Source of the DNA: an uncultured Alphaproteobacteria bacterium
GTDB lineage: Bacteria; Pseudomonadota; Alphaproteobacteria; Rs-D84
Direction of reading: 5' to 3'
NCBI GenBank assembly: GCA_944390125.1
Contig: CALXOX010000003.1
Span: forward strand, 21,280-85,279
DNA: 64,000 nt
Part shown: piece after piece, positions 3,887 to 53,353 of the stretch
Layout: each line of letters opens with the position of its first letter
Numbering within the stretch: the first letter of the stretch is position 1
Program-made: the position numbers and the translations under genes
Notes under the pieces: generated by a model
Database searches by the model: none
What the model was told of the DNA's origin: nothing
Seen by the model: the letters and a program-made list of their open reading frames with translations, nothing else

Positions 3887-3900
3887 TCCCTATCTTTATG

Positions 3901-30736: not shown

Positions 30737-31897
30737 ATGATGAAAATCGCGTTTTGCATACCAGATATGATAATAGGTGGTGTGGAAGCCGTTTTGCTGC
30801 GTACGTTAAATGAGTTGTTGGATACTGTTAAAGAAAATCCAAAATATGCTGGGGCAGAAATATGTGTTATAACTCATGCGCAGATAACAGAACCGTTATA
30901 CAGTCAGTGGTTTAAACAGCACCCAGAGGTAAAACTTTATACTTTTTACCCTTTGCAAAATTATTTTGAAAGTATGATTGCTTATACAGACTTTGTGTTT
31001 GTTCGTCAGGTACGTAAATTGATTTTCAGTTTATACAAAAAGTGCAGACGATTATCATTTAGGAATAAGTTTTCAGACATTGATGTTTTTATTGATTATA
31101 AGAACTGCTCATTTTTTAAAGAGTTGCGCGATTATAAGACTCGTAAGATAACTTGGATACATGGCAGCATAGGATATTTGCAAGATAATAATATTGATAA
31201 TCGTTTGCCAATGTACGACAACATTGTCGGGCTTACAGATGATTTCGTTTCAGATTTTAAAAAAATATTTCCAGATTTGGCGGACAGGGTTGTAAGAGTT
31301 TATAATCCAATTGATATAAATTTTATACGGAATTTATCTAAAGATGCACCCCATACAAGCGGCAAGTATTTTTGCCATGTTTCAAGATTGGAAAGCTTAC
31401 AAAAGGATGTTCGTACACTAATTGCAGCATTCAATGAGTTTTATCTAGATAATGGTTTGCCTGATATAAAGTTGTTGATAGTTGGCGATGGGCCGCAGAT
31501 AAAAGAACTAAAAAAAATGGTGTCGTTATTGCCAAGTAGCAATAACATTGTTTTTACTGGGTTGGCAAGAAACCCATTTGGTTATATGGAAAATGCACTT
31601 GCGAACATTTTGTCATCTAAGTCAGAAGGTTTGCCAACTGTTTTAGTAGAATCTATGGCGCTTGGGGTGTTATGTATTGCATCAAATTGTAAATATGGTC
31701 CACATGAAATTTTGCAAGATGGCAAGTCTGGTGTATTGTTTGAAGTAGGCAATGTTAAACAACTGGCACAGATTATGTCGGATGTTTATAATGGGAAGAT
31801 AGATGTATCATCTATAACTCAAAGTGCTACTGAGTCTTTAGAAAGATTTTCGCCGAAGGTTATAAATAAACAAATAATGGATTTGTTATGGAAGTAA
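30737..31897 (+). CDS. Glycosyltransferase family 4 (GT-B, group 1)
   Basis: E-x7-E motif (SKSEGLPTVLVESMALG) and GT4 C-terminal domain pattern. 386 aa. Confidence 0.75.
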   Translation: MMKIAFCIPDMIIGGVEAVLLRTLNELLDTVKENPKYAGAEICVITHAQITEPLYSQWFKQHPEVKLYTFYPLQNYFESMIAYTDFVFVRQVRKLIFSLYKKCRRLSFRNKFSDIDVFIDYKNCSFFKELRDYKTRKITWIHGSIGYLQDNNIDNRLPMYDNIVGLTDDFVSDFKKIFPDLADRVVRVYNPIDINFIRNLSKDAPHTSGKYFCHVSRLESLQKDVRTLIAAFNEFYLDNGLPDIKLLIVGDGPQIKELKKMVSLLPSSNNIVFTGLARNPFGYMENALANILSSKSEGLPTVLVESMALGVLCIASNCKYGPHEILQDGKSGVLFEVGNVKQLAQIMSDVYNGKIDVSSITQSATESLERFSPKVINKQIMDLLWK

Positions 31898-32820
31898 AAA
31901 GACTATTTTTATTTGCTGGCTATGATAATCAGGGAATCATAGATGATACCCTGTTGCATTATCTACGTTATTTATCTGGATATGGCGACATCATATTTGT
32001 AATGGACAATGTTGCTGCAAATGCAGAGTTGAATAAATTAAATGATATACAAAATATTTTATACCGTACTGCAGAACGTCATGGGGAATATGATTTTGGG
32101 TCTTATAAGCGTGGTTATCAGTGGGCGGACAAGCATGATTTATTGAATAAATATGACTGGATTTACCTTGTAAATGACAGCGTTTATGGCCCATTGTTTG
32201 ATATTAGGAATACATTAGAAGATTTAGAATCTAGGGGTGTTGATTTAACCGGTATGATAGATTTTGTAAACAAATTTACACCGGTACAAGTACAGTCATG
32301 GTTTGTTGGTTTAAGCCGACGCGTTGTGAATGAACAATTTTTTAAGGATTTTATGAATGGTATTCAGGCACAGACGGACAAACAACTGATTGTATTAAAG
32401 TATGAAGTTGGTTTATCACAATTGATATTGCAACATGGGTATAAGATGTCTACTTTTATAAGTGGCGAAAAGGGTGATGCTGTTCATCGCATATATGAGC
32501 AACCGTTAAAGATGTTAAAAAAGGGGCTGCCATTTATAAAAAAGCAGGCATTGATGAATTTGCAGGGAATGCAGTATTTGTACCCTTATACAACAGAGGC
32601 TTTTGTGGATGAAATTTATCATAATGCCTCAAGAACAGGCGTAAAGATAAATGTAATAAGGACAGAAAAACCGCGTTACGAGAAGTATTATCGATTGACA
32701 TTTTTATCAATACCAATATTGACTATTTACAGACAGTTGCACGACAACGGGATGTTGGTTTGTTATAAAGTCTATATATTTGATTTTGTGCCTGTGATTA
32801 AGATTTTACTAAACAGATAA
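31888..32820 (+). CDS. Rhamnan-synthesis-F (RgpF)-like N-terminal-domain protein
   Basis: LFAGYDNQGIIDDTLLHYLRYL...YDFGSYKRGYQW...YLVNDSVYGPLF resembles the N-terminal half of the RgpF/PF05045 family, from memory. Overlaps the GT4 end by 10 nt. Confidence 0.5.
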   Translation: MEVKRLFLFAGYDNQGIIDDTLLHYLRYLSGYGDIIFVMDNVAANAELNKLNDIQNILYRTAERHGEYDFGSYKRGYQWADKHDLLNKYDWIYLVNDSVYGPLFDIRNTLEDLESRGVDLTGMIDFVNKFTPVQVQSWFVGLSRRVVNEQFFKDFMNGIQAQTDKQLIVLKYEVGLSQLILQHGYKMSTFISGEKGDAVHRIYEQPLKMLKKGLPFIKKQALMNLQGMQYLYPYTTEAFVDEIYHNASRTGVKINVIRTEKPRYEKYYRLTFLSIPILTIYRQLHDNGMLVCYKVYIFDFVPVIKILLNR

Positions 32821-32953
32821 AAGTTCATTGATTTTTTTACTGTTTTGTGGTATAATTATGGGAAAGATTTGGGGCGATTTATTCGCCCTAATTTCTTTTT
32901 TAGGCCCCGCATATTTATGCGGGATTTTTTTGTTAAAAAATGAAGGCTAAAAG

Positions 32954-33787
32954 ATGTTTGAAATAAAATATTCTGGAGATGGGCAAACGAAAAAATTTGT
33001 TTTTTCTTTCCCATTTTTTACACCGTCTGATGTTTTTGTAATGTTGAATGGCGACGTAATACATTCTGGATACCAGTTATCAACGGTTAGTAATCAAGAA
33101 TCTTCTGATATACCGTATTCTGGTGGTACAGTTACGTTTGATGTTGCACCGAAACTTGGTGATAATATAAAAATTTTTAGAAGAATTGGTGTATCGCGCG
33201 TGGTAGATTATCAGCCGACTAAACCCATAGATCCACAGGCTTTGAACCAAGATTTTTCTTTTATGTTGGAAAAGTTAAAGGATTTTGACGGGATGCTGAC
33301 TGATTTTTATGACAAGTATTCTGAAATTATAAATTCAGATAGTTATAATGTTTTTACGCAAAAGTTAGATGATATAAATAATAAATTAAATGCATTGGGC
33401 GGGATAGATAATATTGGCAAGAAGAGCGATATAACGGCGCTACAAAATGCAACCAGTTTTACGGCGTCTGGCAAAGAATCTGTAGTATCTTGGCTGCAGA
33501 TAAACGGAAAATTCATAAATGCCAACTTCTTGGGAACGGAAGCTGGGGGGTATTTATACACGCCTGAGGCGCATGGTATATTGTCAGTAGTTTTCACAGC
33601 AAATGTTAGTGGAGATGCTGCCGTAGAGGCTCCTGATGCTAAAACTATATACCATAAAAGTATAACTGTTAATGCAAGAGAAACTATTTTGTTACCAGTG
33701 CATAAGGGATTGCAAATAAAGTTCACTGTACCGGCGCTAAAAGAAGTGAATTATCAAAGATTGTTTTTATTCAAGGGAGAACAATAA
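32954..33787 (+). CDS. Phage T7 gp17-like tail-fibre N-terminal (tail-attachment) domain protein
   Basis: IKYSGDGQTKKFVFSFPFF..VFVMLNGDV...GYQLS...VTFDVAPKLGDNIKIFRRIGVSRVVDYQ matches the conserved N-terminal pattern of T7-type tail fibres (Y.GDG....F.F.FPY...V.V..G....YT....V.F..AP..G..I.I.R.....VD). Confidence 0.5.
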   Translation: MFEIKYSGDGQTKKFVFSFPFFTPSDVFVMLNGDVIHSGYQLSTVSNQESSDIPYSGGTVTFDVAPKLGDNIKIFRRIGVSRVVDYQPTKPIDPQALNQDFSFMLEKLKDFDGMLTDFYDKYSEIINSDSYNVFTQKLDDINNKLNALGGIDNIGKKSDITALQNATSFTASGKESVVSWLQINGKFINANFLGTEAGGYLYTPEAHGILSVVFTANVSGDAAVEAPDAKTIYHKSITVNARETILLPVHKGLQIKFTVPALKEVNYQRLFLFKGEQ

Positions 33788-34086
33788 TGTTTTACACAAA
33801 TGAAATAAAGGACCACAAAATTGGTTCTTACACGGATGACAAGAATTTGGCTAAAAAGCTGGGTTTTAATATAAAACTTGAGAATATAGAAATAGCAGAT
33901 AATGGTATCGCATATGAAGCTGGCTTTGCGCCTGCGGCGCCACAAAAAAGTTATATAGAATTGCGACTTTTGGCGTACCCGCCTGTTGAAGAGCAATTGG
34001 ATATGATTTATTGGGATATGGTCAATGGTACCAGAAAATGGCAAGATACAATACAAGCAATCAAAGAGAAATATCCTAAAAATTGA
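33787..34086 (+). CDS. Small hypothetical protein translationally coupled to the tail-fibre-like gene
   Basis: ATG overlaps the upstream TAA (TAATG). 99 aa, no recognisable family. By position it could be a tail-fibre assembly or chaperone analogue. Confidence 0.4.
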   Translation: MFYTNEIKDHKIGSYTDDKNLAKKLGFNIKLENIEIADNGIAYEAGFAPAAPQKSYIELRLLAYPPVEEQLDMIYWDMVNGTRKWQDTIQAIKEKYPKN

Positions 34087-34087
34087 A

Positions 34088-34112
34088 AGAACCGGGTTTA
34101 TCCCGGTTTTTA
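34088..34112 (+). terminator. Intrinsic terminator
   Basis: CCGGG-TTTAT-CCCGG hairpin followed by T5. Confidence 0.5.
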
Positions 34113-34184
34113 TGGTAAAAATAACTTGATTTTACGTGATTATTGCTACTATACTCCCCTCTACAGTTATTTATGGAGAAAGGT

Positions 34185-37100
34185 ATGTCTTTTTTAAAGC
34201 GTAGCACGGAATATAATCTAATAGCAAAATCAAAATATTTCAATAAAAGATGGTATTTAAGGAAGTACGCAGATGTTGCCAGCAAGAGGGTGGACCCTGT
34301 AACACATTATTTGGAACATGGCTGGAAAGAGGGCAGAAATCCTGGACCTAAGTTTAGTACAGAACTTTATCTGAAAAATAATCCTGATGTGGCGGCAGCA
34401 AGGATAAATCCTTTGTTGCATTACGAGAGAAACGGGAAGTATGAGGTTGGAAGAATAGCCGTAAGACACAAATGTAATCGTTTTTTATATAAGTACCTTT
34501 CTTTTGTTCACAAATGTTTTAAACGTGCAGATATAAAACGTATTTTATTGATTTCGCATGAGTTTACTTATACCGGTGCGCCTTTATCTCTGTTAAAGGC
34601 CGCACAATTGCTGAAAGAAAAGGGATATGAAATAATAACTGTTTCTTTAAAGGCTGGAGGATTAGAAACAGAATTTAAGAAACTTGGCAAAGTAATTATA
34701 ACGAGTAATCTTAACAAAATACTACGTTGTGCCACTTTTGCGGATTTTGCCGTTGTGAATACAATCATTCCATATGAAGCGTACGACATGTTAAAGAATT
34801 TTATGCCTACTGCTTGGTGGATTAGGGAACCCGTTGGTGTTCTTAAAGGAAATTGCTTTATGCGGCAGATTTTTATGAATGCAGATAACGTATATACTAT
34901 GTCGCCGTGGTCCAGAGATGAGTTTTTGCCATATAACAGAAATATCGAAGTGATGCCGCATGGCTTAGACGACATGTTTGCTGGTAGTAAAGCTTTCCCT
35001 AAAAAGCCTACTTTTGCTGTGATTGGTAGTATTCATCCAAGAAAAGGACAGGATGTTTTTATAGATGCTGTAAAGAAATTACCGGCAGAGATTAGGAAAA
35101 AAGCTGCTTTTTTAATTGTTGGTAAATTAAATGTGTCAGATAGTGATTGGGAGAGCCTTGGGGCGCCAAAATGTATACAAGTAAAGCCAGAAATATCTAA
35201 TTTTGAGGATATGATAAAGTTTTATGGTGACATATCTTGTACAGTTGTTCCGTCTAGGGAAGAGCCTACATCCAGGGTCGCAATAGAATCCATGATGATG
35301 GGGCGCCCAGTTGTGATGTCAGATCAGGTCGGCGCACAATACTTGGTCAATAGCCGCAATGGTTATGTGTTCAAAAATGAAGATGCTAAACAATTGTCTG
35401 GTATATTAGCTAAACTTATAAAGTCTCCTGAAAAATTAAAAACGATGGGTAAGTATGCCAGAGAAGCTTATTTGAAGAACAATTCTATTCCTGTTTATAC
35501 GAAAAATTTACTTAATATGCTGTCAGATTGTAAAAATTCTTTTGATAATAAACCGACTAAAATACTGGTACATATTCATTTATTTTACCACGAGCAGTTA
35601 GATTGGTTTATATCTAGATTGAAAAATATAACCTGTGATTATGATTTGTGGATTACGGTTACAGAAAAAAATAAAGAAACTGAGGATAAAATAAAGAATT
35701 TTAAACCAGATACACATATTTTAAAAGTGCCCAATCGTGGTTATGATCTTTATCCATTTTGGTTGGTTTTACAAAATGTTTCATTGTTTGATTATGACGC
35801 GGTATTGAAGTTGCACACCAAGAATAAAAGAACTAAAAAATGGTGCAAGAACGGTATTTGCTATAATGGTTTTGAATGGCGTAACGATTTGATAAATCCT
35901 TTGTTGGGCAGTAAGAAATTGTTTCAGAAAGCAGTGGATTTTGTGAAATGCGATAATATTGGCATGGTTGGGTCCGCCAATTTGATTGGTAATAAAGAAA
36001 ATCCAGAGCAGGCCAAAAATACAAAAAAATTGTGTGAATTGATGGGAATAAAATATTCTCATGATGGCAAGTTTGTATGTGGCACGATGTTTTTGATAAA
36101 GGCAAATTTATTGCTGGTTTTTCAGCAGTATCCATTCAAAAAATCTGATTTCAGCTCGGAGTCAAAGACTGGAAGTACTGGTACTGTTGCGCATAGCTTA
36201 GAAACAGTTATGGGTTTGATTGTCGCAGACAGAAAATTAAAATTGGTTGGTGTTGATACGCTTGGAACATCGTTTAAGCATTTTTGCGCAAGGTACAAAC
36301 AAAAATATATAAATTTATTAAAAACAATAAGAAAACGTAAAAAAGAAGTTGATTATATAAAACATTCTAAGTATTTCAGTAAAAGGTGGTACTTGCGTAC
36401 ATATCCAGATGTTGCAAAGGCAAAGGTGAACCCAGCACATCATTATTTGCTGCATGGTTGGAAAGAAGGTCGTAAACCAGGACCTAAATTTGATCCTAAA
36501 TTTTATTTAGAAAATAATCTTGATGTGAAAAGAGCTGGGGTAAATCCATTGCTGCATTATGAGAAACATGGGAAATACGAAGGCAGAATTGTTTGCCTTA
36601 AAAGAAGTTTAAAGCCAGCTGGACTTAAAGAGTTTCATGATGTTTACGTTGACGCCTTTAAATGGCGTGGCAAGATTGCCAAACGGGTTGTTGTATCATT
36701 GACAACATATCCTGGACGAATCAAGTCAGTTTATGAAACTATAAACACGTTAAAAAATCAGTCTGTTAAACCAGATAAGGTCGTACTGTACTTATCTGAG
36801 CAAGAGTTTCCTAAAAAGGATAAGGGACTGCCAAGAAATTTAACAAAGTTATGTGACGATTGCTTTGAAATACATTGGATTAAGAAAACTCTGTATAGTT
36901 TTCAAAAACTTATACCGGCAATAAAAGAATATCCAAATGCTGTAATTGTTACTGCCGATGACGACATTTTGTATAAAAGCAATTGGCTGGAATTATTGGT
37001 GAAGGCATATTTAGAAAATCCTAATATAATTCATTGTCATCGTGCGCATAGAATAAAATTCCGTGGTGGCCATGTTATATCCTATAACTTATGGAAAATG

Positions 37101-37517
37101 GCGATACGTAATGAGTCTGCTCTATATAACAACTTTTTAACTGGGGTTGGCGGAGTGTTGTATCCACCACATTGTTTGGATAAAAATATTACTAATTCAA
37201 AGGAATTTTTGAAGTTATGCCCGAAAGCTGACGATATATGGATTTGGGCAATGGCGGTAAAAAATCATACAAAAATTCATGTCATAAAAGACAATATAAC
37301 TGCATTAGAATTGGTGCCTGGCAGTCAAGATGGTGATTGCTTATGCAAAATCAATACCGGTGCTGAATGTTATAATGATGTGCAATTAAAAAATGTTTTT
37401 GCAAAATATCCAGAAATTTTAGAAATGCTAAAGGACGAAAGAAGGAAAAACGCCATATTATCTTATTTGCTATACCCGTATTATTTACTATACTTTCTTA
37501 GAAAGGGTAAGAGATAG
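34185..37517 (+). CDS. Three-module polysaccharide glycosyltransferase (GT4, RgpF-like and GT-A-like modules) with duplicated ~75-aa module
   Basis: Start set to the ATG at 34185 with a GGAGAAAGG SD. GT4 E-x7-E motif (SREEPTSRVAIESMMMG). RgpF-like motifs (ILVHIHLFYHEQL, PNRGYDLYPF, KLHTKNKRT). C-terminal module VVVSLTTYPGRI...VTADDDILY. The block YF(N/S)KRWYLR.Y.DVA...V.P..HYL.HGWKEGR.PGPKF...YL.NN.DV..A..NPLLHYE..GKYE occurs twice. Confidence 0.7.
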   Translation: MSFLKRSTEYNLIAKSKYFNKRWYLRKYADVASKRVDPVTHYLEHGWKEGRNPGPKFSTELYLKNNPDVAAARINPLLHYERNGKYEVGRIAVRHKCNRFLYKYLSFVHKCFKRADIKRILLISHEFTYTGAPLSLLKAAQLLKEKGYEIITVSLKAGGLETEFKKLGKVIITSNLNKILRCATFADFAVVNTIIPYEAYDMLKNFMPTAWWIREPVGVLKGNCFMRQIFMNADNVYTMSPWSRDEFLPYNRNIEVMPHGLDDMFAGSKAFPKKPTFAVIGSIHPRKGQDVFIDAVKKLPAEIRKKAAFLIVGKLNVSDSDWESLGAPKCIQVKPEISNFEDMIKFYGDISCTVVPSREEPTSRVAIESMMMGRPVVMSDQVGAQYLVNSRNGYVFKNEDAKQLSGILAKLIKSPEKLKTMGKYAREAYLKNNSIPVYTKNLLNMLSDCKNSFDNKPTKILVHIHLFYHEQLDWFISRLKNITCDYDLWITVTEKNKETEDKIKNFKPDTHILKVPNRGYDLYPFWLVLQNVSLFDYDAVLKLHTKNKRTKKWCKNGICYNGFEWRNDLINPLLGSKKLFQKAVDFVKCDNIGMVGSANLIGNKENPEQAKNTKKLCELMGIKYSHDGKFVCGTMFLIKANLLLVFQQYPFKKSDFSSESKTGSTGTVAHSLETVMGLIVADRKLKLVGVDTLGTSFKHFCARYKQKYINLLKTIRKRKKEVDYIKHSKYFSKRWYLRTYPDVAKAKVNPAHHYLLHGWKEGRKPGPKFDPKFYLENNLDVKRAGVNPLLHYEKHGKYEGRIVCLKRSLKPAGLKEFHDVYVDAFKWRGKIAKRVVVSLTTYPGRIKSVYETINTLKNQSVKPDKVVLYLSEQEFPKKDKGLPRNLTKLCDDCFEIHWIKKTLYSFQKLIPAIKEYPNAVIVTADDDILYKSNWLELLVKAYLENPNIIHCHRAHRIKFRGGHVISYNLWKMAIRNESALYNNFLTGVGGVLYPPHCLDKNITNSKEFLKLCPKADDIWIWAMAVKNHTKIHVIKDNITALELVPGSQDGDCLCKINTGAECYNDVQLKNVFAKYPEILEMLKDERRKNAILSYLLYPYYLLYFLRKGKR

Positions 37518-37523
37518 AATGCT

Positions 37524-38201
37524 ATGAAAAAAAGAAATAAACTTTTAATTTTATTTATCAGCTTGCTTTTGGTGTTTATAGCAGGATGGTTGATTCATTA
37601 TCAAGTAAATGTATTCAAACTGAATCAGGATATCAAGAATACCGCTGTTGATACTGTTGTATATCGACCATATTTATTGGGTACAAAAATATCATTTGCT
37701 GAAGGTGGAAATAGTTCTGACTACATAAAAACAGAAGATGGTTGGGGTGGTCAAGAACCAGAACACAGATGTGCATTGGGCAAGCGTGCAGTTGTTCGGC
37801 TTTATATTCCAGATAGCATTGGTGAGAATTTACGTTTAACAGTTGATGGTTTTGGTGTGTTTTCGTTTAAAACAGCGACGTACCAGGAAGTAAAAGTTTA
37901 CGGTAATGATGTGTTGATGACCACATGGCAGGCTGGATATGATGGCCCCTTTAGTGTAGATATTCCGAACAATATAATTACTGATAATTCTCTGATATTA
38001 CGTTTTGAGTTTGCTAAGCCGCATAGTCCTGCGGGGGATAAACGAAAAATAGGTATGGCGGTTAGAAGTATGGAAATAAGCCGTATAGTTGGGTCTCAGA
38101 CAAAGCGAAAAATTGGTAAATGGGTAAAAGATAATTTGATGGGTGGCGGCGTAAAGCAGGAATATGATACCGCCGTATCAAAAAACGAAAATTGGTTATA
38201 A
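37524..38201 (+). CDS. Membrane-anchored hypothetical protein (225 aa)
   Basis: N-terminal TM (LLILFISLLLVFIAGWLI) with an extracytoplasmic beta-rich domain. Sits inside the polysaccharide locus. Confidence 0.45.
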   Translation: MKKRNKLLILFISLLLVFIAGWLIHYQVNVFKLNQDIKNTAVDTVVYRPYLLGTKISFAEGGNSSDYIKTEDGWGGQEPEHRCALGKRAVVRLYIPDSIGENLRLTVDGFGVFSFKTATYQEVKVYGNDVLMTTWQAGYDGPFSVDIPNNIITDNSLILRFEFAKPHSPAGDKRKIGMAVRSMEISRIVGSQTKRKIGKWVKDNLMGGGVKQEYDTAVSKNENWL

Positions 38202-38213
38202 TATAGGGCGATT

Positions 38214-40007
38214 ATGTCTAACGATAAACAGCAAAATAGTATAAATAAGTTGGCTAAAAATGCGATAATAAAAAATTACAAGCGCATGTGGCCGTATGTG
38301 AAGCCTTATTGGAAGCAGGGGCTGCTTTCCATATTGTTGGCTATGCCTATTGGTGCCTTAGAGGGCGTTATAGCGATGTCTTTGCGCCCATATATGGATT
38401 TGGTTATGGTGGATAAATCCATTGAGGCGGCTTGGTATATTCCATTGGTTATAGTGTTGTTTACTTCTGTACAGGGTGGTTTGACATATGCAGCAAATTA
38501 TTTGAATACATGGGTTGGTGCAAAAATTACGAATTTGCTGAAGTTGGATTTGTACAAGAAGATGTTGATGTTTGATACTAATTTCTTCAACCGTCGCAAT
38601 TCTGGTGATATTTTGCAAATGTTTAACAGAAATGCGGATGCAGCGTGTTCAGGTTTGCTTACGAACTTAAAGAATTTTGTGCAGAAACTGTTTACGGCTT
38701 TGTCTTTAATATTTGTTTTGTTTTATAATTCATGGCAACTAGCGTTGGTATGCGTAACAATTTTGGTTGTTGCTTTTTTGCCCATGACTACATTAAAGAA
38801 AAAAATTCAGTCTGTTTTTGATAGTTCTTTGGTGGCAGAATCTTCTTTAATGACTGCCTATAATGAAACGTATTCTGGTAATAAAACGATTATCTCGTAT
38901 AATTTATCTGATTATCAAAAGAATAAATTCAAAAGCATTTTGGATGGCGTTTTTAAATTGCAGATGAAGATGGTTCAACGAACCAGATGGTTGACGCCTG
39001 TAATGCACATAATTTTATCAATTGGTATTGGTGCGGCAATATGGTTTGGTTCATTTTTGGTGTTGAATGGGTTTATAACTAGTGGCGCATTTGTATCATT
39101 TTTAACGGCTCTTATAATGTTGTATAACCCTATGAAAAGCATTGGCTCTAATTATAATTCTGTATTGATGTCTTTTATGGCCATAGAACGGGTTTTTGAG
39201 ATTATGGATTCAAAACCAGCTATTGTCGATAAGCCAGAATCTAAAGAAATGCCGGCTTTACATCATACAATAGAGTTTAAGAATTTAAATTTTGAATATA
39301 ATCGTGGCGTTCCTATCTTAAAGAACATAAACCTGACGGTACAGCAAGGACAAATTATCGCTTTGGTTGGGAATTCTGGTGGTGGTAAGACAACTTTGGT
39401 AAGTTTGTTGCCGCGTTTTTATGACCCTACAAGTGGTGCAATTTTAATTGATGGGACAGATATTCGCGATTTTACATTGAAATCATTGCGTCAAAACATA
39501 GGTGTGGTTTTCCAGGATAATTTCTTATTTGCAGGCACAATTCGTGAAAACATTATGTTGGGTAACGAGAACGCTACTCAAGAACAGTTAGACACAGCGA
39601 TAAAAATGGCGTGTTTGGACGATTTTGTGCACAGTTTGAAAAATGGCTTAGACACTCAAATTGGCGAGCGTGGTATATTGTTATCAGGTGGTCAGAAACA
39701 GCGTGTTGCCATTGCGCGGGCATTTTTGAAGAATGCGCCTATATTGATATTGGATGAAGCGACATCTGCGCTTGATAATAAATCCGAAGCAGTCGTTCAG
39801 CAGGCAATAGAAAACTTGATGAAGGACAAAACAGTATTCGTTATAGCGCACAGATTATCCACAATAAGAAATGCTTCTAAGATAGTTGTGGTAAATCAGG
39901 GTGAAATTGTTGAAGCTGGTACCCACGAAGAATTACTGCAACATGAATGTGGGGCATATAAGACTTTGTATGATATGCAGTTTAAGTGTAATGCTCCATC
40001 GGAATAG
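38214..40007 (+). CDS. ABC exporter, fused permease/ATPase (MsbA/NdvA-like type I exporter)
   Basis: Six-TM N-terminal domain. NBD with Walker A GNSGGGKTT, signature LSGGQKQRVAIARA and Walker B ILILDEATSALD. Confidence 0.8.
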   Translation: MSNDKQQNSINKLAKNAIIKNYKRMWPYVKPYWKQGLLSILLAMPIGALEGVIAMSLRPYMDLVMVDKSIEAAWYIPLVIVLFTSVQGGLTYAANYLNTWVGAKITNLLKLDLYKKMLMFDTNFFNRRNSGDILQMFNRNADAACSGLLTNLKNFVQKLFTALSLIFVLFYNSWQLALVCVTILVVAFLPMTTLKKKIQSVFDSSLVAESSLMTAYNETYSGNKTIISYNLSDYQKNKFKSILDGVFKLQMKMVQRTRWLTPVMHIILSIGIGAAIWFGSFLVLNGFITSGAFVSFLTALIMLYNPMKSIGSNYNSVLMSFMAIERVFEIMDSKPAIVDKPESKEMPALHHTIEFKNLNFEYNRGVPILKNINLTVQQGQIIALVGNSGGGKTTLVSLLPRFYDPTSGAILIDGTDIRDFTLKSLRQNIGVVFQDNFLFAGTIRENIMLGNENATQEQLDTAIKMACLDDFVHSLKNGLDTQIGERGILLSGGQKQRVAIARAFLKNAPILILDEATSALDNKSEAVVQQAIENLMKDKTVFVIAHRLSTIRNASKIVVVNQGEIVEAGTHEELLQHECGAYKTLYDMQFKCNAPSE

Positions 40008-41179: not shown

Positions 41180-41424
41180 TTCGTTTCGTCTTTGTTTAGC
41201 GATTATAAGTATTTTTATTCAAGATAATCTTAAAATTGTTTTTATAGATTTTCAAGTATGCTCAATTCTGATTTCAAGTATGAAATCTATGTGATTTCAG
41301 AGGTGATTTCAGCAGTAATGGTATATATTACTGTGTGTCAAATATGTGTTTTTGTTCTACAACTAGAGCAATTTAGAGCCATTTTCATCCAATTTTGCAT
41401 AAAAACGGGGTAGAAGACAGACAA

Positions 41425-41503
41425 TAAAAAATCCGCAGAAATCTGCGGAAATCTGTGGCTCGGGCAACTGGACTCGAACCAGGACATACGGATTAACAGT
41501 CCG
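41425..41503 (-). repeat. Direct repeat A: degenerate partial copy of the tRNA-Asn 3' half plus downstream terminator (att-like)
   Basis: 41426-41503 matches 44831-44909 (AAAAAATCCGCAGAAATCTGCGGAAATCTGTGGCTCGGGCAACTGGACTCGAACCAG[T]GACATACGGATTAACAGTCCGTT) with a 1-nt deletion; it diverges after CCGTT. Confidence 0.7.
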
Positions 41504-41686
41504 TTTTTATTAAGATTGATAGAAATTGATAAAGTTTAATTTTTATTGATTTTCTGCGGGTTATAGGCTATGTTGCACTTGATGACGATTAATGAAAAGA
41601 AGCAATATCTGATGGAACTGATGATTAGTGTTGATGCTTTGCTTTCTATATTTTTTATAATAAAAGGTGCCAAGTGGCACCTTTTT

Positions 41687-42697: not shown

Positions 42698-42970
42698 AAT
42701 TCACTCCTTTGGTTTTTGCAGTAAGAACCAAAGGTGGATTCATGTAGCTACCAACACAGGTGCAAAAGCACTGTGCAAAATGCGGCATAAAGTATAGGAA
42801 AATTTGCATATAACAACTCCTTGTTTAGTCCATTTAGAGGTAGGACAAGTCAGGTTAAATCCACCTTTACTGATCCATATTGTAAATCATTTGAAAAAAA
42901 ATGCAAGCCAGATCACTACAACAAGATAAGCCACCCAAAAGAGTGGCTTATTCATAATAGATCAAACCGT

Positions 42971-44644
42971 TTATTTTGCACCGTACGAGATCAATAATTT
43001 AGCAATATCTTTATCAGAGTTTTTCTTGGCATGTTTGAGGGGTGTATAGCCAGACGTGTCGGCCATATTGACATCTGCACCAGCATCCAATAGAACAGTT
43101 ATCAATTCAAGTTTAGCCTTCTTATCAAACTTTGAATTAGGATAAAGCTTACGATTTATAGCGTAAATGAGAGCTGTAGACGTGTATGTGTCGGCATTAA
43201 CATCCGCACCAAGTTCTATAAGTTTCTCTATTACTTTAGGATTTGAATTGTTTGCAACAGCATTCATTAAAACTGTGCGTCCTGTTTTTGTCGCATAATT
43301 AGGATCGGCACCGTATTTAACTAATACAGCAAAAATTTCTGGGTTTGTGTTGTACGTCGAAGCTTCCATCAGAGGAATAATTTTTTCTGTTTTTTCCAAT
43401 TTAATTGGTCTTATTGCATGCTTTAATACTTCTTTAGGCAATTTGTGTACTACTTCAACAGAATTAGGATCTATTCCTTTTTTTAGCAATTCTTCAACTT
43501 GTTTAGCGTTACCAGAATTTTGTATTAAATGTACAAATGCTTTTACCTTGTCATCGCTAGCTGGTGTTAATACTTCTTCTAAACCTTTTTCCCAGGAAAT
43601 CATCCGAGAAGAAATAACTGCCCCTTTATCAACAAAAAGGCGAAGAATTTCTAAATCTTGTTCTCGTTCTTCTTTGCGTGCGCTTGTGTTTCTAACAATA
43701 CATTCTATAATTGGTTCTCCGTCTATTTTGGCATTCACATCGGCACCTAGGTCGACAAGTTTTTTTACTGAATTTGCAGTATATTCAAAGCTATCGATCA
43801 AATCGCACAAAACTAGAGTGATGTCTTGTTTGTCCACCAATCCCTTTTTGTTGAGCAGTTTATAAATCTTTTCAATCATGTCCGGGTTAGGATTGTGTGT
43901 AGCGGCATTCAGCAAGGTTTGATTTTCGGGACCAGCAAAAATCCCACCATCTTCGTTGATAGAAACCCCTAAATTAGCACCGGCTGAGATCAGATAATCA
44001 ACAACCTCTAATGATGGGTTGTCTCTACATGCTACATATAAAGCTACGTCTAGCTCGTCTTTGGGCATCCCATTATCAAACAATGATTTTATAATCAACG
44101 GATTAGGGTTGCATTGTGCGGCGATAATCAATGCACTACGGTCTTCTTCATCGCAGGCGGACATATCAGCACCGTTATGTAAGAGATAATCAATAATTTC
44201 AACATTTTGGTTAAATTTTGCTGCGTAAAGCAAGGCACTGCCTGCAACAATGCTATCTTCGCCATAATCATCACGTTCATCAGATAAGAACAACTTCTGT
44301 GCCTCGTTTACTATCGAATTTAGTACGGATTTCGGTATGTTGTCAGGGTCCTTTATTTTTGCAGCATAATTCTTTTTTTTCATGACACATCTTACTAAGA
44401 AACCAAAGTAGTCTTTTGTTTCGGCATTTATGTCGGCCCCAGCCTCTACTAAAGTCTTAATAACATCTAGGCATGCTCCGGATTTAACAGCTATAATAAG
44501 GGGTGTGGAACCATTTTTTGTTTCGCAATTTACATCTGCACCTAGCGATATGAATTTTTGTATTTCTTTACTAGATACTTTGCTGTTTGAACAGGCAGTA
44601 AGCAATTCTATATCTACATCAATAATATCTTCAGAATGTGACAT
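42971..44644 (-). CDS. Ankyrin-repeat protein (557 aa)
   Basis: At least 10 ankyrin-like repeats with GADVNA, GADINAE, GANLGV, GADPNY and LL.AGADVN loops. Confidence 0.85.
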   Translation of the reverse strand: MSHSEDIIDVDIELLTACSNSKVSSKEIQKFISLGADVNCETKNGSTPLIIAVKSGACLDVIKTLVEAGADINAETKDYFGFLVRCVMKKKNYAAKIKDPDNIPKSVLNSIVNEAQKLFLSDERDDYGEDSIVAGSALLYAAKFNQNVEIIDYLLHNGADMSACDEEDRSALIIAAQCNPNPLIIKSLFDNGMPKDELDVALYVACRDNPSLEVVDYLISAGANLGVSINEDGGIFAGPENQTLLNAATHNPNPDMIEKIYKLLNKKGLVDKQDITLVLCDLIDSFEYTANSVKKLVDLGADVNAKIDGEPIIECIVRNTSARKEEREQDLEILRLFVDKGAVISSRMISWEKGLEEVLTPASDDKVKAFVHLIQNSGNAKQVEELLKKGIDPNSVEVVHKLPKEVLKHAIRPIKLEKTEKIIPLMEASTYNTNPEIFAVLVKYGADPNYATKTGRTVLMNAVANNSNPKVIEKLIELGADVNADTYTSTALIYAINRKLYPNSKFDKKAKLELITVLLDAGADVNMADTSGYTPLKHAKKNSDKDIAKLLISYGAK

Positions 44645-44829
44645 GAAATATTCTTTTTGTTATATTACTGATATTAGCACACGACGAGTACGGTTAACAA
44701 GATAAAACTATTAAATTAGAAAAACATACGTATATCCCGTATGTAAATATATGTTTTTATAACGCATCTAGGGGCAGTTTTAGGAACTTTAAAGCACTTT
44801 TGTTAAAAAACATGATTTTTAATAAACGT

Positions 44830-44909
44830 AAAAAAATCCGCAGAAATCTGCGGAAATCTGTGGCTCGGGCAACTGGACTCGAACCAGTGACATACGGATT
44901 AACAGTCCG
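44830..44909 (-). repeat. Direct repeat B (intact copy, spanning tRNA-Asn 3' half and its terminator)
   Basis: See repeat A. Includes the terminator hairpin TCCGCAGA-AA-TCTGCGGA (44838-44856) downstream of the tRNA 3' end. Confidence 0.7.
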
Positions 44910-44936
44910 TTGTTCTACCGACTGAACTATGCCCGA
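44861..44936 (-). tRNA. tRNA-Asn (anticodon GTT)
   Basis: Reverse complement TCGGGCA-TA-GTTC AGTCGGTA GAAC-A-ACGGA CTGTTAA TCCGT-ATGTC-ACTGG TTCGAGT CCAGT-TGCCCGA-G-CCA. Closely resembles E. coli tRNA-Asn (U1, discriminator G). Confidence 0.85.
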
Positions 44937-46313: not shown

Positions 46314-48335
<2,022 letters not shown>

Positions 48336-48590: not shown

Positions 48591-49235
48591 ATGAAGAATG
48601 TTTTATTTTTTTCTTTATTATTCTTAGTGTTGTGGACTTGCGATGCTTTTGCTGTTCTAACCAATTGTATAGGAACTACCACGTGTCCTGACCAAAATGG
48701 TTGTCAGTATTTGAATGTGGTAGGATGTGCAACTGGAAAAGATATGTTTTATGGTAGTTATGCTGTTAGAAGTTGTTTGACTTGCGGCAATGGTTACGAA
48801 TTGGTTTCTAAAAGTGTGTTTGTGCCGGGGTGCACCAGAGCCGTCTTTTATAATGATTGCCAAGCAACATGTGTAAAATGCCCAGATTGCGAAAGTGAAG
48901 ATTGGACAAGTGTTAGTTTGCTTAGTTTTTATGAGAAAAAAGTCAATGCAGTATGTAATAAGACTACGTGTACGTGTAGTAAAACAACATCGTACAGATG
49001 TAAAAAAGGATATTATGGTACGGCCAATGCAACAGGAACTTCTGGTTGTTCTAGATGTCCTTCGCTTGGAGCAGGGCGCCCAATAGGTAGTGAAACTTGG
49101 CTTTCTTTGTATGCCTCTACACCAGGTGCTGGTAATGGTTACGATATAACAGACTGTTATGCTCCCTCTACAAACGAGTATAAAGACACGTATGGAATCT
49201 ATAATTATACGTCGGACTGTTATTATACAGAATAA
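48591..49235 (+). CDS. Cys-rich secreted protein, family-1 copy A (214 aa)
   Basis: Signal peptide, about 20 Cys. Shares the core NVVGC...SC.TC..G...V.KS..VPGC..A..Y.DC...C..CPDCESEDW and ...DCY with copies B and C. Confidence 0.6.
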   Translation: MKNVLFFSLLFLVLWTCDAFAVLTNCIGTTTCPDQNGCQYLNVVGCATGKDMFYGSYAVRSCLTCGNGYELVSKSVFVPGCTRAVFYNDCQATCVKCPDCESEDWTSVSLLSFYEKKVNAVCNKTTCTCSKTTSYRCKKGYYGTANATGTSGCSRCPSLGAGRPIGSETWLSLYASTPGAGNGYDITDCYAPSTNEYKDTYGIYNYTSDCYYTE

Positions 49236-49307
49236 ATTTGATAATAAATTTATTCTTGATTTTGTTACACATTGATATGTAATATGCAAATATAGAAAGG
49301 CATTATC

Positions 49308-49937
49308 TTGAAAAAAATATTGTTTAGTTTTTTTCTGGTTTGGGCATGTTTAAATACACATAGTGGTTTTGCTGCAGAGTTTGTTAGATGTATAGGCACA
49401 GCAGATTGTGCTGTTGGTATACAATGCCCAATTATAAATTTAGTTGGATGCGGATCTTTTACGACCCAATACTATAATAATATGGGGGTTTCAAGTTGTA
49501 CTACATGTCCAAGTGGTTTTAATAGAGTTTCTAAATCTATAACTGTTCCAGGGTGTTCAAACGCAATAACTTATTATGATTGTGAGCAGCCATGTATAGA
49601 ATGCCCAGACTGTGAAAGTGAAGATTGGAAGACGTATGTAACACCAAGTGGTGTAATTAGAATCGCGTATCAGAGAAAAGTTACTGCTACTTGTAATTAT
49701 GCTACGTGTGTTTGTTCTAAAAAATACCAATATCGTTGCAATGATGGGTATTATGGTAGGTCGATAAACGGTTTGACAGGATGTTCTCGTTGCCCAGCAA
49801 ATGGAAGTAATGGGTTGCTTACGTGGGGAAGTAGTGTCGCAGGAAATAACTTGTCTATAGCTGGTTGCTTTGTTGCAAGTGGCGGCGATGAGTCTGGAGA
49901 TTATATGTATTCACAGGATTGCTATTATAAAAGATAA
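49308..49937 (+). CDS. Cys-rich secreted protein, family-1 copy B (209 aa), TTG start
   Basis: TTG start at 49308 after a GAAAGG SD. About 75% identical to copy C across the core. Upstream motif ATATAGAAAGG is shared with copy C. Confidence 0.6.
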   Translation: MKKILFSFFLVWACLNTHSGFAAEFVRCIGTADCAVGIQCPIINLVGCGSFTTQYYNNMGVSSCTTCPSGFNRVSKSITVPGCSNAITYYDCEQPCIECPDCESEDWKTYVTPSGVIRIAYQRKVTATCNYATCVCSKKYQYRCNDGYYGRSINGLTGCSRCPANGSNGLLTWGSSVAGNNLSIAGCFVASGGDESGDYMYSQDCYYKR

Positions 49938-50039
49938 TCAGGCGTCTATTCTAGTTTGTTTTAATACTAACAATTTTTAACTTGACTTAATAATAGTGTA
50001 CTGTTTAACATATATAGAAAGGGACAAGAGGTTATTGCT

Positions 50040-50681
50040 GTGAAGAGAATATTTTTTTGTTTTTTGGTAATTTGTGTTTGTTATAATCCATGTAAATCCT
50101 TTGCGTCTTTTCAGGCTTGTGCGGGGGTGGCTTTCTGCTCTGCTGGTGTAAGGTGTCCAAATTTAAACGTTGTTGGATGCGCGAATTTTACAACTACGTA
50201 TTACAATGACATGGGCGTGTCCAGTTGTACTACATGTCCAAGTGGTTTTAATAAAGTTGCTAAATCTATAACAGTTCCTGGGTGTTCAAACGCAATACTT
50301 TATTATGATTGTGAGGCACCGTGCCTAGAGTGCCCAGATTGTGAAAGCACTGATTGGACTTCTACGGAGGCTCGTGGTGGTTATGAGAAGAAAGTTACAG
50401 CGATTTGTAATACGGCTTTGTGTGTATGTAGAAAAACAACTTCCTATAGATGTAAGCAAGGATTTTATGGCACGTCTAATTCATTGGGAACGTCTGGATG
50501 CACACAATGCCCACAGGTCGGGGTTGCAGATAACGGAAACTATTTGATATATGTAACTGGTGAAACTCCTGCTGCCGGGAATGGGTATTCTATAACAGAT
50601 TGTTATGCACCAAATACTTACGAATATATAGGAACCGGCGGAAACTGGGTCTTTACAGAAAATTGTTATTATACAGAATAA
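50040..50681 (+). CDS. Cys-rich secreted protein, family-1 copy C (213 aa), GTG start
   Basis: GTG start at 50040 after an AGAAAGGGA SD. Conserved Cys scaffold. C-terminal DCYAPNTYEY...NCYYTE matches copy A. Confidence 0.6.
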   Translation: MKRIFFCFLVICVCYNPCKSFASFQACAGVAFCSAGVRCPNLNVVGCANFTTTYYNDMGVSSCTTCPSGFNKVAKSITVPGCSNAILYYDCEAPCLECPDCESTDWTSTEARGGYEKKVTAICNTALCVCRKTTSYRCKQGFYGTSNSLGTSGCTQCPQVGVADNGNYLIYVTGETPAAGNGYSITDCYAPNTYEYIGTGGNWVFTENCYYTE

Positions 50682-50870
50682 CGTGTACTACGTTGTTTAC
50701 GGTGTTTCTTTGTGAGGAATAACATGTTTAGTCTTGATTTTAAAATGTAATACAGGATATTATGACTATAAAGATTCCACTGGTATATATGATTATTCAC
50801 AGGAATGTTGGTATTCAATGTAAAAGTTAAAATTTGTTATAAAAATAGCCCCCATTAGAGGGGGCTTCTT

Positions 50871-51473
50871 TTATAATCCAAATTTATATGCAGCGCTTAT
50901 GTAAAACTCTGTGCCATCGATTTCAGTTGAAGCATCGCCGATGTCTAGGTCTCCATAATTCTGATACTTTAAACCAAGGTTTAAGTCAACGCGATTATTT
51001 AATGCGAAGTTTACACCGATCATTGCAGACCAAGACATATCAGCGGTCTCATTTGATATATTGTGCAATCCGTCTATGTTTCCCCATATGCCAGAAACAC
51101 CGATGCCAAGGCCAATATATGGTTCAACTGCACCTTCTATTTGTTGATACACGTATACGTTCAGCATATTTGACCATATGTTAAATCCAAAATCTTTTCC
51201 ATATTTTTCCTGGTTTCCACCGTTATACAAGGTCTCAAATTCAATTTTTACGTGATTTGTCAGACGATTGCCTATATATAAACCAACCCCAAAACCATCA
51301 TCGCGAACGGTTGTTCCTGTATTTTCTTGTGTTTCTAATCTAAAGGCAATGTTGTCATTTTTATGTAACCGCATACCTACATAATTGTCGCGTTGGGTTG
51401 AATTGTAGTCATAGCCATTTGCAAATGCAGGCAGTGTCAATATAGACAATACTGCGGTTATTATTTTTTTCAT
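50871..51473 (-). CDS. Small outer-membrane beta-barrel protein (OmpW/opacity-like)
   Basis: Start trimmed to MKKIITAVLSILTLPAFA with an AAGGAAAGAGAG SD. Beta-strand pattern; ends ...AAYKFGL. Confidence 0.55.
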   Translation of the reverse strand: MKKIITAVLSILTLPAFANGYDYNSTQRDNYVGMRLHKNDNIAFRLETQENTGTTVRDDGFGVGLYIGNRLTNHVKIEFETLYNGGNQEKYGKDFGFNIWSNMLNVYVYQQIEGAVEPYIGLGIGVSGIWGNIDGLHNISNETADMSWSAMIGVNFALNNRVDLNLGLKYQNYGDLDIGDASTEIDGTEFYISAAYKFGL

Positions 51474-51574
51474 CTCTCTTTCCTTTTTAAGCACATTGGA
51501 CATTATAGGTTTAATTTATGGAATTTTGCAAGGCGTTTGTGATATAATTCTGGAGAGAATAAAAGGAAGGGCGC

Positions 51575-53353
51575 TTGTTTAGCAAAAATACGGATACACA
51601 CGTAAAAGTTTCTGTAGAGCAAAAAACTGGACCGTCACGGGCGTTGCGCCTATTTGTGTGGTGTGTAGATTTATTCTTGTTGGCTTTGGTGGCGGTGGCG
51701 ATATATGTTGTTATAATTTTCTTACAGATGCCTTCTTTGGATGCGATATTACATGAAACGCGCCCAGCTGCGATTGTGTTTTTAGATAAGGACGGGACAG
51801 AGATACGGTCTTCAAATCGAATAATGGGAACGCCTGTATCTGTAGAAACTTTACCGCCATATGTGTGGCAGGCAATAGTTGCGATTGAAGATAAAAGATT
51901 TTTTGAACATGGCCCTATTGATGTGCGTGGTATAACGCGAGCAATGTTGTCTAATTTGATACATGGGCGGTTGGCGGCTGGCGGTTCTTCAATTACGCAG
52001 CAAACGGCAAAGAACGTTTTTTTATCTAGGGAAAAGAAAATTTCTCGTAAAGTACAAGAGCTGATTTTGTCTTATTGGCTGGAGAACAGATTTGATAAGA
52101 ATCAAATTCTTGATTTATATATGAACCGAGTATCTTTAGTTGGTGGAATGCGCGGTATAGATGCGGCGGCGCGTGTAATGTTCCAAACCAGTGCAAATAA
52201 GTTGTCTATTGCACAGGCGGCACAAATTGCAGCAATGTTAAAGGCTCCGACGACATATAGCCCACTAATAAACCCAGATAAGAATATTGCGCGAGCACGT
52301 ATAATATTACAAGAGATGGTTCGACAAGGTTATATAACTTTAAATCAGGCTAGAATTGCGGCCAAAGAATTGGCACCTGCAACCCCTGCACCGAATACTA
52401 ACATATACAGATATTGGACGGATTTTGTATTAGATGAAGTAGAATCGACAATTGGAACGTTCGAATCAGATATGTACGTGTATACCACGCTGGATATGGA
52501 TTTACAAGAGCGAATTGCCGCGATTTTGCCGGAAAAGGTTGGGGGATATCAGGGTGCGTCAGTGGCTATGGAGACTGATGGCGCAGTACGTGCTATGGTC
52601 GGCGGAACAAATTATCAAGAAAGTCAATTTAATAGAGTGCTAGCTTTACGACAGCCAGGTAGTTCTTTTAAGCCAGTCGTGTATCTGGTTGCACTGGAAA
52701 ACGGAATGACGCCAGATTCTTACGTGAATGATTCGCCGTTTTCAATTGGTGATTATTCTCCGCAGAATTATAACAAACGTTATTATGGTGATATTACGTT
52801 GGCAACCGCATTTGCAAAGTCTGTAAATTCAGTGCCGTTGAAGTTGACAGAAGCATTTGGAATAGACAGCGTTTTAAATATGGCTGGTCGTTTGGGAGTT
52901 GGCAATACGTTGCGTAGGGAGTATTCTACAGTTCTGGGTGCATCAGAAATGTCCTTGCTGGATTTGACGACGATTTATGCAGTTATATGGAATGACGGGT
53001 TCTCAGTGCGACCTTATTCAATAACTAAAATTACAGATCCAAAAGGCAATATAATATATCAGCGTAATCCGTCTGAACCTTTGCGTATTTTGATGCCACA
53101 AACGGTGGAATATATGACAGATTTGTTGGCAGATGTGGTTAAAGTCGGTGGAACGGGGCACCGTGCGATGGCACCTGGTGTACTGGGTGGAAAAACAGGT
53201 ACCAGCAATGATAATCGTGATGCGTGGTTTGTGGGTGCTTGGCATGATTTAATAATTGGGGTTTGGATGGGAAATGATAATTTTACGTCCATGTCATCCA
53301 AGATAACTGGTGGTACAATACCAGCAGAGATTTTTCATGAAATTGTGAAATAG
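51575..53353 (+). CDS. Class A penicillin-binding protein (glycosyltransferase GT51 plus transpeptidase), short form
   Basis: GT51 motif EDKRFFEHGPIDVRGITRA. Transpeptidase motifs SSFKP (SxxK), SVNSV (SxN) and KTGTS (KTG). N-terminal TM anchor. Confidence 0.8.
   Translation: MFSKNTDTHVKVSVEQKTGPSRALRLFVWCVDLFLLALVAVAIYVVIIFLQMPSLDAILHETRPAAIVFLDKDGTEIRSSNRIMGTPVSVETLPPYVWQAIVAIEDKRFFEHGPIDVRGITRAMLSNLIHGRLAAGGSSITQQTAKNVFLSREKKISRKVQELILSYWLENRFDKNQILDLYMNRVSLVGGMRGIDAAARVMFQTSANKLSIAQAAQIAAMLKAPTTYSPLINPDKNIARARIILQEMVRQGYITLNQARIAAKELAPATPAPNTNIYRYWTDFVLDEVESTIGTFESDMYVYTTLDMDLQERIAAILPEKVGGYQGASVAMETDGAVRAMVGGTNYQESQFNRVLALRQPGSSFKPVVYLVALENGMTPDSYVNDSPFSIGDYSPQNYNKRYYGDITLATAFAKSVNSVPLKLTEAFGIDSVLNMAGRLGVGNTLRREYSTVLGASEMSLLDLTTIYAVIWNDGFSVRPYSITKITDPKGNIIYQRNPSEPLRILMPQTVEYMTDLLADVVKVGGTGHRAMAPGVLGGKTGTSNDNRDAWFVGAWHDLIIGVWMGNDNFTSMSSKITGGTIPAEIFHEIVK

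Follow-up and report, generated by a model that had tools for sequence, protein, structure and literature searches.

An undescribed cysteine-rich protein family in a recombination hotspot of an Rs-D84 gut alphaproteobacterium

Giardia variant-specific surface proteins (VSPs) and ciliate surface antigens are cysteine-rich, CXXC-bearing, protease-resistant coat families, and in bacteria the Anaplasma Msp2/P44, Neisseria pilE/pilS, Borrelia VlsE and Treponema TprK systems consist of paralogous cassettes at one locus. Here, a tandem trio of genes (A, B and C) that recalls both is described from a 64,000-nucleotide stretch of an uncultured alphaproteobacterium (assembly GCA_944390125.1, contig CALXOX010000003.1, positions 21,280 to 85,279), referred to as the window, to which all coordinates belong unless another locus is named. 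The trio occupies positions 48591-50681 of the forward strand, in a recombination hotspot: here, the exchange of segments between paralogs and the changes in their number are much faster than change in the genome around them.

As in the VSPs and the ciliate antigens, the cysteines of the trio are dense and regularly placed, with CxxC pairs among them, the proteins are presumably extracellular, and the genes belong to a large and divergent multigene family of gut-dwelling organisms, with a constant scaffold and a variable surface. Those protist families differ in being eukaryotic, in having a C-terminal transmembrane anchor, in their far larger number of genes per genome and in the expression of one gene at once; the trio has neither a Pfam VSP match nor an anchor. 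Like Msp2/P44, pilE/pilS, VlsE and TprK, the trio has sharp-breakpoint mosaic alleles and a conserved framework that serves as recombination anchor, and two marks of a gene-conversion system, paralogous cassettes and statistically supported mosaic breakpoints, were found. However, those systems combine one expression site with silent, promoterless and truncated donors and switch within a clone during infection, whereas all copies of the trio look independently expressible and their exchange was seen between strains only; a single expression site with silent donors was not found, the only truncated piece being a 66-nt relic. The chlamydial OmcA and OmcB envelope proteins are likewise Sec-exported and cysteine-rich and come from an obligately partner-dependent bacterium, and the odd cysteine of the trio could cross-link as in that system, but they have no sequence or domain similarity to the trio and are conserved single-copy genes, in contrast to its hypervariable array. 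Because the trio is neither a plain gene-conversion system nor a member of the nearest curated family (PF07699, Ephrin_rec_like), it is regarded here as a protein family with a fold of its own, neither of them described before, that follows an evolutionary pattern already familiar.

The preferred reading, to which a probability of roughly 0.55 is given, is that A, B and C are interaction or coat proteins that are exported, stabilised by disulfides and diversified through segment exchange between paralogs. Each gene would encode a Sec-exported protein with a mature part of ~190 aa, predicted to be all-beta and disulfide-stapled, in which three distinct hairpin-rich modules would follow one another, the last of them an ephrin-receptor-like (GCC2/GCC3-type) cysteine-rich repeat followed by a terminal beta-hairpin. 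The conserved scaffold of cysteines and aromatic residues would bear variable hairpin excursions, and the tandem paralogs swap segments through gene conversion or unequal crossover, both forms of homologous recombination, with the effect that strains of the same species display differing N-terminal, middle and C-terminal combinations and have two or three genes. The proteins would resist proteases, would lie outside the cell or on its surface and would mediate or shield contact with a host, a partner cell, antibodies or phage, and selection by host antibody, partner receptor or phage may maintain their diversity. The reshuffled versions found among strains suggest that the trio faces a host, a partner cell or an enemy. 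The genes, their predicted signal peptides and their C-terminal modules are as follows (RBS, ribosome-binding site; HMM, hidden Markov model).

48591-49235, forward strand: gene A, ATG start, 214 aa (family HMM E 6e-85)
48591-48653, forward strand: predicted signal peptide of A (aa 1-21)
48993-49160, forward strand: C-terminal Ephrin_rec_like-type module of A (YRC...ITDCY)
49308-49937, forward strand: gene B, TTG start, 209 aa, RBS GAAAGG 7 nt upstream
49308-49373, forward strand: predicted signal peptide of B (aa 1-22)
49731-49871, forward strand: C-terminal module of B
50040-50681, forward strand: gene C, GTG start, 213 aa, RBS AAGAGG 8 nt upstream
50040-50105, forward strand: predicted signal peptide of C (aa 1-22)
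50445-50606, forward strand: C-terminal module of C

An earlier note, made from the sequence of the window, had described three tandem open reading frames (ORFs) on the same strand, with a TTG start in B and a GTG start in C, and the ORF list agrees with it in these points. Each of the three copies is intact and has its start codon, an RBS and a signal peptide, and the product of B is identical to the database protein P0004. When the three products were aligned end to end, 72 columns were invariant, every scaffold cysteine included, and each mature protein has 19 cysteines, which bears out the dense shared scaffold of about 20 cysteines reported before. In the core (NVVGC...CESxDW), identity reaches 83% between B and C (estimated earlier at about 75%), and A shares 52% with B and 53% with C (earlier about 50%). 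Downstream of the core the order is reversed (A-C 53%, B-C 36%), a flip that is a sign of mosaic ancestry. The two stretches that the earlier note had singled out as variable, after CES.DW and in the last ~50 aa, are indeed the indel-rich and least conserved parts. Pairwise Nei-Gojobori comparison of the paralogs gave dN/dS of 0.19-0.33 with saturated dS; A, B and C are old coding sequences under purifying selection, and therefore their resemblance is not due to chance and the genes are not decayed.

The signal peptides proposed in the earlier note are Sec-type N-termini by inspection: MK(K/R/N) at the start is followed by a hydrophobic segment (residues 4-16 have a mean Kyte-Doolittle value of 2.1-2.6) and by xFA, which precedes the first conserved cysteine in A, B and C. 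The pattern is conserved across the family (M1 96%, K2 73%, A22 71%), and by inspection the basic n-region, the h-region of ~12-15 aa and the small residues at -3/-1 are those of a signal peptidase I (SPase I) substrate. The lipobox [LVI][ASTVI][GAS]C with cysteine at +1 is absent, the residues before the first conserved cysteine being LTN, FVR and FQA, and cysteines within the h-region are not conserved between alleles (allele B of L004, a strain of the same species, has none). For these two reasons, the bacterial lipoprotein class was rejected. No twin-arginine (RR) motif was found in the N-termini of A, B or C.

Among 114 members of the family, 17 positions are cysteine in at least 85% of the sequences, and two further cysteine positions alternate (C39/C54 and C125/C128). 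The other conserved elements include W106, G-Y (114-115), Y-R-C-x2-G-Y-Y-G (136-144), G-C-x2-C-P (153-158), A-G (179-180), I-T-x-C-Y (185-189), D198, G201 and C209-x-Y211. The commonest number of cysteines in the mature proteins of the family is 19, an odd count that places one thiol outside intramolecular disulfides, as an intermolecular bond, a free thiol or a metal ligand. Disulfide formation is likely in view of the Sec export, the lack of a metal-cluster family match and the receptor-type cysteine-rich repeat; in a search for pairing from cysteine co-loss in the 114 sequences, the signal was too small and just the C39/C54 and C125/C128 alternates stood out. A 4Fe-4S ferredoxin-type or other metal-cluster protein was considered and rejected, as the trio has C-x3-C-x2-C-x2-C and not CxxCxxCxxxCP, lacks a Tat signal and gave no match to Fer4 or related Pfam families, the sole related NCBIfam match reaching 9.5 bits (E 0.51).

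Structure prediction with AlphaFold2 from 21 sequences gave a mediocre model (pLDDT 75), and from 114 sequences an all-beta model of 13 strands in successive hairpins (pLDDT 91.1, pTM 0.68), in which the five AlphaFold2 models agree (pLDDT 89.6-91.1). The model has no significant match in the PDB, and the best hint at its fold would be the receptor-type cysteine-rich repeats. Hairpin turns or excursions of the model, at residues ~107-114, 159-178 and 190-207 of C, coincide with the diversified regions of the earlier note and with indel-rich columns. A comparison of the N-terminal, middle, C-terminal and tail modules by hhalign, which looked for internal repeats, found no relationship among them.

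Pfam PF07699, formerly GCC2_GCC3, is a cysteine-rich repeat found in extracellular proteins of eukaryotes, Eph receptors among them. At E<=1, 6 of the 114 members match it, and one passes the gathering threshold (P0032, residues 132-168, 24.4 bits against a threshold of 23.1, covering profile positions 13-48 of 48). A, B and C have no match to it at E<=10, which is below the gathering threshold, and they are not members by the curated test. All three contain GC-x2-CP-x2-G...ITxC, with C154, C157, P158, G180 and C188 conserved at 89-100% family-wide, and the cysteine spacing of PF07699 (C-x(2)-C-P-x-G...C, in a hairpin repeat of ~45 residues) is present. The C-terminal module may thus be ephrin-receptor-like, as a distant or borderline relative of PF07699 on sequence grounds; it is called by that name without membership because the window proteins reach no PF07699 threshold.

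The modules also occur in other arrangements. The C-terminal module stands alone behind a signal peptide in proteins of 90-140 aa, the N-terminal module is duplicated in members of 270-320 aa, and in a paralog of 331-338 aa, CarboxypepD_reg beta-sandwich domains are inserted between the middle and C-terminal modules. The 331-aa form, with two such domains, was found in the same species at L091 (6001-6996), between the genes for RNase J and alanyl-tRNA synthetase, on an 86.5-kb contig that also bears the triplet of strain L007. Within the window, an ORF of 93 aa (63034-63315, forward strand) has a signal-peptide-like N-terminus and 6 cysteines, and its last 23 residues, EYEDDSGTFVFTSICEM, resemble the terminal hairpin of the family (family HMM E 0.0036); it has a homolog at L064 (15821-16105). 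Its membership as a fourth copy was not established, as only these 23 residues align and the hhalign probability is 10%.

The HMM searches proposed in the earlier note returned no housekeeping family for A, B or C, which have no Pfam match at E<=10 and no usable match in NCBIfam, PHROGs or PADLOC, and a sequence search of the PDB with the family profile gave chance matches only (antibody CDR-H3 'YYCARGYYG'). A word-indexed search of 5.8 billion proteins found 22 clusters, and when 1.84 billion representatives were searched exhaustively with HMMER, 1113 matched at E<=1e-3 and 506 of them at E<=1e-10, these being representatives of clusters at 50% identity; nearly all of the top 150 matches are full-length (190-240 aa). 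Where members have a name at all, it is 'hypothetical protein' from Alphaproteobacteria or Rickettsiales metagenome-assembled genomes (MAGs), and the Pfam annotation among them is solely a precomputed PF07699 on two stand-alone mini-proteins. A scan of GTDB species representatives with family patterns found no relative; in some loci retrieved through LigA, family members were present in its neighbourhood. Phage records and IMG/VR contigs contained no relative, and a phage-borne origin was therefore rejected. The earlier claim that the trio belongs to no known family stands as to curated families and has to be modified for the C-terminal module, given its borderline relationship to Ephrin_rec_like; the claim of novelty holds in that the family is unannotated, although with 1113 cluster representatives it is not small or private to one genome.

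The LigA protein encoded next to the trio is at most 86% identical to those of 185,579 GTDB species representatives, and its best matches are from uncultured Alphaproteobacteria and several Candidatus Enterousia MAGs (from chicken, horse, yak, sheep, buffalo, mouse and Hadza human gut). The host of the trio is Candidatus Enterousia, a gut lineage of the order Rs-D84. Enterousia/Rs-D84 have genomes of ~0.75-1.0 Mb, and Enterousia has neither a TCA cycle nor respiratory chains nor the standard nutrient transporters; many of its envelope proteins are uncharacterised, and an obligately symbiotic or parasitic life, with metabolites obtained from other cells, was proposed for it (PMC12306168). The family is large, undescribed and so far labelled only from such reduced-genome gut Alphaproteobacteria of Rs-D84/Enterousia type.

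Four other assemblies of the same species contain the locus (L004, L005, L007 and L008). Where present in them, ligA is 98.3-98.5% and the penicillin-binding protein (PBP) gene beyond the trio 99.4-99.7% identical in nucleotides to the window. In 150-nt windows against the other strains, identity is 0.94-1.00 in the flanks, 0.48-0.93 in the cassette blocks and down to 0.04 where sequence was replaced outright. When N-terminal, middle and C-terminal segments were typed at 80% identity, N-type 1 was found with C-types 1, 2 and 4, N-type 3 with C-types 3 and 5, and C-type 1 with N-types 1 and 4, and most of the diversification between strains is the exchange of pre-existing segments. The traces of an exchange in the window are given below.

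from ~50485, forward strand: 3' part of gene C, imported by recombination (breakpoint and drop in identity against L007)
50682-50764, forward strand: 83-bp 3' flank that came with the imported C-terminal segment (blastn)
50758-50823, forward strand: relic 3' end of the displaced C-terminal segment, YYDYKDSTGIYDYSQECWYSM plus stop (66 nt)

Gene C of the window is a mosaic whose 5' side corresponds to gene C of L007 and whose 3' side corresponds to gene A of L007, with the breakpoint at alignment codon column ~154 (three-sequence maximum chi-squared 135.6, permutation p<=2e-4); reciprocally, gene A of L007 combines the 5' part of window A with the 3' part of window C (maximum chi-squared 159.4, p<=2e-4). 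Along window C, identity to L007 falls from 0.87 to 0.60 at ~50473, and dS between window C and L007 A is 3.1 in the N-domain and 0.056 in the C-terminal segment. The 83-bp flank is 100% identical to the sequence directly 3' of L007 gene A (8640-8722), and the relic behind it matches the intact 3' ends of L007 gene C (90% nt) and L094 gene 3 (95% nt), as well as the C-terminus of protein P0011.

The number of genes in the slot between ligA and the next outer-membrane beta-barrel protein (OMP) gene also varies. The slot is empty in L011-L013, the three species representatives whose LigA is the most similar and whose ligA directly adjoins the OMP gene. L097 and L090 have one gene there, the strain L093 (95.6% ligA identity) has two, and the species of the window and the sister species L094 (87% ligA identity) have three; single family genes adjoin ligA or a second OMP-like gene in several more distant species. 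The first gene of L093 is a chimera with the N-terminus of A and the C-terminus of B, such as an unequal crossover of these two genes should produce. Duplication with local diversification, as described in the earlier note, is therefore stronger than had been seen from one sequence, with mosaic alleles and variable copy number. Other damaged or rearranged alleles were also observed: L094 gene 1 (3527-4084) is frameshifted after ~45 codons, P0009 has an internal tandem duplication of ~25 aa, and P0239 (87 aa) is a deletion derivative with the start of the A signal peptide fused directly to the C-terminal module. The OMP gene (50871-51503) is 93-96% identical in nucleotides between strains, with 150-nt windows down to 0.87, compared with 98-99.7% for ligA and the PBP gene, and the variable zone thus reaches into it.

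Two other sources of variation were considered and rejected. The codon-level comparison of paralogs that the earlier note suggested as a check for diversifying selection did not show point-mutational positive selection, since pairwise dN/dS is below 1 wherever counts are adequate and the values above 1 rest on <=11 substitutions. Phase variation through homopolymer tracts was rejected for lack of a convincing excess over the background; 4 A7/T7 tracts were found in 2.4 kb, all of them in signal-peptide codons, and the window has 0.86 per kb.

Among other explanations, secreted disulfide-rich toxins or bacteriocin-like effectors against microbes or host cells, the paralogs having different specificities, would agree with small, exported, cysteine-rich, tandemly duplicated and strain-variable proteins of an organism that is probably parasitic on other cells. 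However, no immunity gene, dedicated exporter, processing protease or toxin domain was found nearby, Pfam, PADLOC and PHROGs gave no matches, the conserved part is a scaffold of cysteines and aromatic residues without a candidate active site, and the hint at receptor-type repeats in the fold points elsewhere; with nothing specific in its favour, this explanation is improbable. Periplasmic or envelope components, either structural and cross-linked through cysteines as in the chlamydial outer-membrane complex or redox proteins that bind thiols or metals through CxxC and CxxCxxC, have in their favour the free thiol that 19 cysteines leave for intermolecular bonds, the C-x2-C and C-x3-C-x2-C-x2-C motifs, a Sec signal that alone implies the periplasm and a host that is a reduced-genome symbiont. 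A copy number of 0-3 among close relatives, with none at this slot in the three with the most similar LigA, and hypervariable alleles would both be unusual for structural or redox proteins of a housekeeping kind; in addition, there is no match to Fe-S, rubredoxin or thioredoxin families and no twin-arginine signal for cofactor-loaded export, and peptidoglycan synthesis genes are present (window ORFs; PMC12306168), which makes an envelope function an unlikely one as well. If such a function did apply, the finding would shrink to a new domain family.

Tandem signal-peptide proteins with a strain-specific repertoire and variable copy number could also, by analogy with orphan immunity arrays, act together in the periplasm as inhibitors of, or immunity proteins against, incoming toxins, proteases or phage proteins, but the flanks contain no cognate toxin genes, recombinases or mobile-element hallmarks, PADLOC gave no match, and no immunity family is known to have a 19-cysteine scaffold, so that the probability of this explanation is very low. 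Non-functional ORFs, either decaying duplicates or chance, would be in line with the damaged alleles found elsewhere (L094 gene 1 and P0239) and with the 3' relic in the window; against the intact window copies, their low dN/dS at saturated dS, a scaffold conserved over more than 1000 clusters and a confident fold model, this explanation retains a negligible probability. The remaining weight is left to explanations outside those listed.

Several points weigh against the reading as exported interaction or coat proteins. In diderm bacteria, a Sec signal takes a protein to the periplasm only, and neither a dedicated exporter nor an anchor was found near the trio; release beyond the periplasm, like the surface location and the interaction role, is what we infer. 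The dN/dS values are below 1 wherever they can be trusted, the mosaicism was observed between strains and not within a clone, and the odd cysteine count leaves one thiol without a partner in the same molecule. In addition, the organism is reportedly without respiratory chains, which bears on how periplasmic disulfides would be oxidised. More speculatively, the locus could be a working variation system, in which three expressed paralogs of a new cysteine-rich fold, with a eukaryote-like module of ephrin-receptor type at its end, continually exchange segments and thereby re-tune or disguise a ligand for a partner, either bacterial or eukaryotic (a host or a protist). This extension is doubtful; if true, bacteria would have a counterpart to the variant surface proteins of protists, and there would be a first molecular access to the way in which Rs-D84 attach to other cells and live off them.

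Enterousia and its relatives in Rs-D84 occur widely in the guts of humans and animals, and a life at the expense of other cells is predicted for them. With more than 1000 unannotated clusters, a confident fold without a solved relative, a eukaryote-like cysteine-rich module and a fast-recombining locus, the family is a candidate for their contact or evasion interface and offers a target for structural studies, for assays of IgA and glycan binding, and for the typing of strains.

The sequences around the three genes contain the following elements.

46332-48335: ligA (NAD-dependent DNA ligase), upstream of the trio
49290-49300, forward strand: ATATAGAAAGG, copy 1, an exact 11-mer upstream of B that contains the RBS of B
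49982-50011, forward strand: promoter-like TTGACT-18-TAACAT, directly 5' of the ATATAGAAAGG of C
50012-50022, forward strand: ATATAGAAAGG, copy 2, an exact 11-mer upstream of C
50847-50866, no strand assigned: G+C-rich hairpin with T-runs on both strands
50871-51503, reverse strand: small outer-membrane beta-barrel gene (OMP_b-brl/Opacity-like; precomputed Pfam, syntenic loci), not a family member, bounding the slot
51575-53353: class A penicillin-binding protein gene (PBP1A), beyond the OMP gene

The upstream element that the earlier note had seen in front of both B and C is the exact 11-mer ATATAGAAAGG, which occurs exactly twice in the window (49290 and 50012); the distance from its 3' end to the start codon is 7 nt in B (TTG) and 17 nt in C (GTG). 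Gene C has a second RBS (AAGAGG) nearer to its GTG than the 11-mer, and B and C also have promoter-like hexamers in common. The OMP gene is convergent with the trio, and the hairpin between them is likely a bidirectional terminator common to both.

Elsewhere in the window, a gene for a 557-aa ankyrin-repeat protein (42971-44644, reverse strand; Pfam Ank_2 E 9e-41) was found 4 kb upstream of the trio, and ankyrin repeats in a genome below 1 Mb hint at interaction with a eukaryotic cell. The gene lies in a 1.96-kb segment (42868-44830), beside a tRNA gene (44864-44936), that is missing from the conspecific L007, whose flanks are 98.6-99.2% identical. The SAM synthetase and ankyrin genes lie between the two copies of a direct repeat of ~88 bp (41421-41508 and ~44826-44914, ~95% identical via L007), which overlaps the region of the tRNA gene and might be the duplicated site of an integration. 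An ORF of 812 aa (26070-28508) has no Pfam match, and the low-GC region (~0.35) at 30737-40007 of the forward strand contains glycosyltransferase, RgpF-like and ABC-exporter genes that make up a surface polysaccharide locus.

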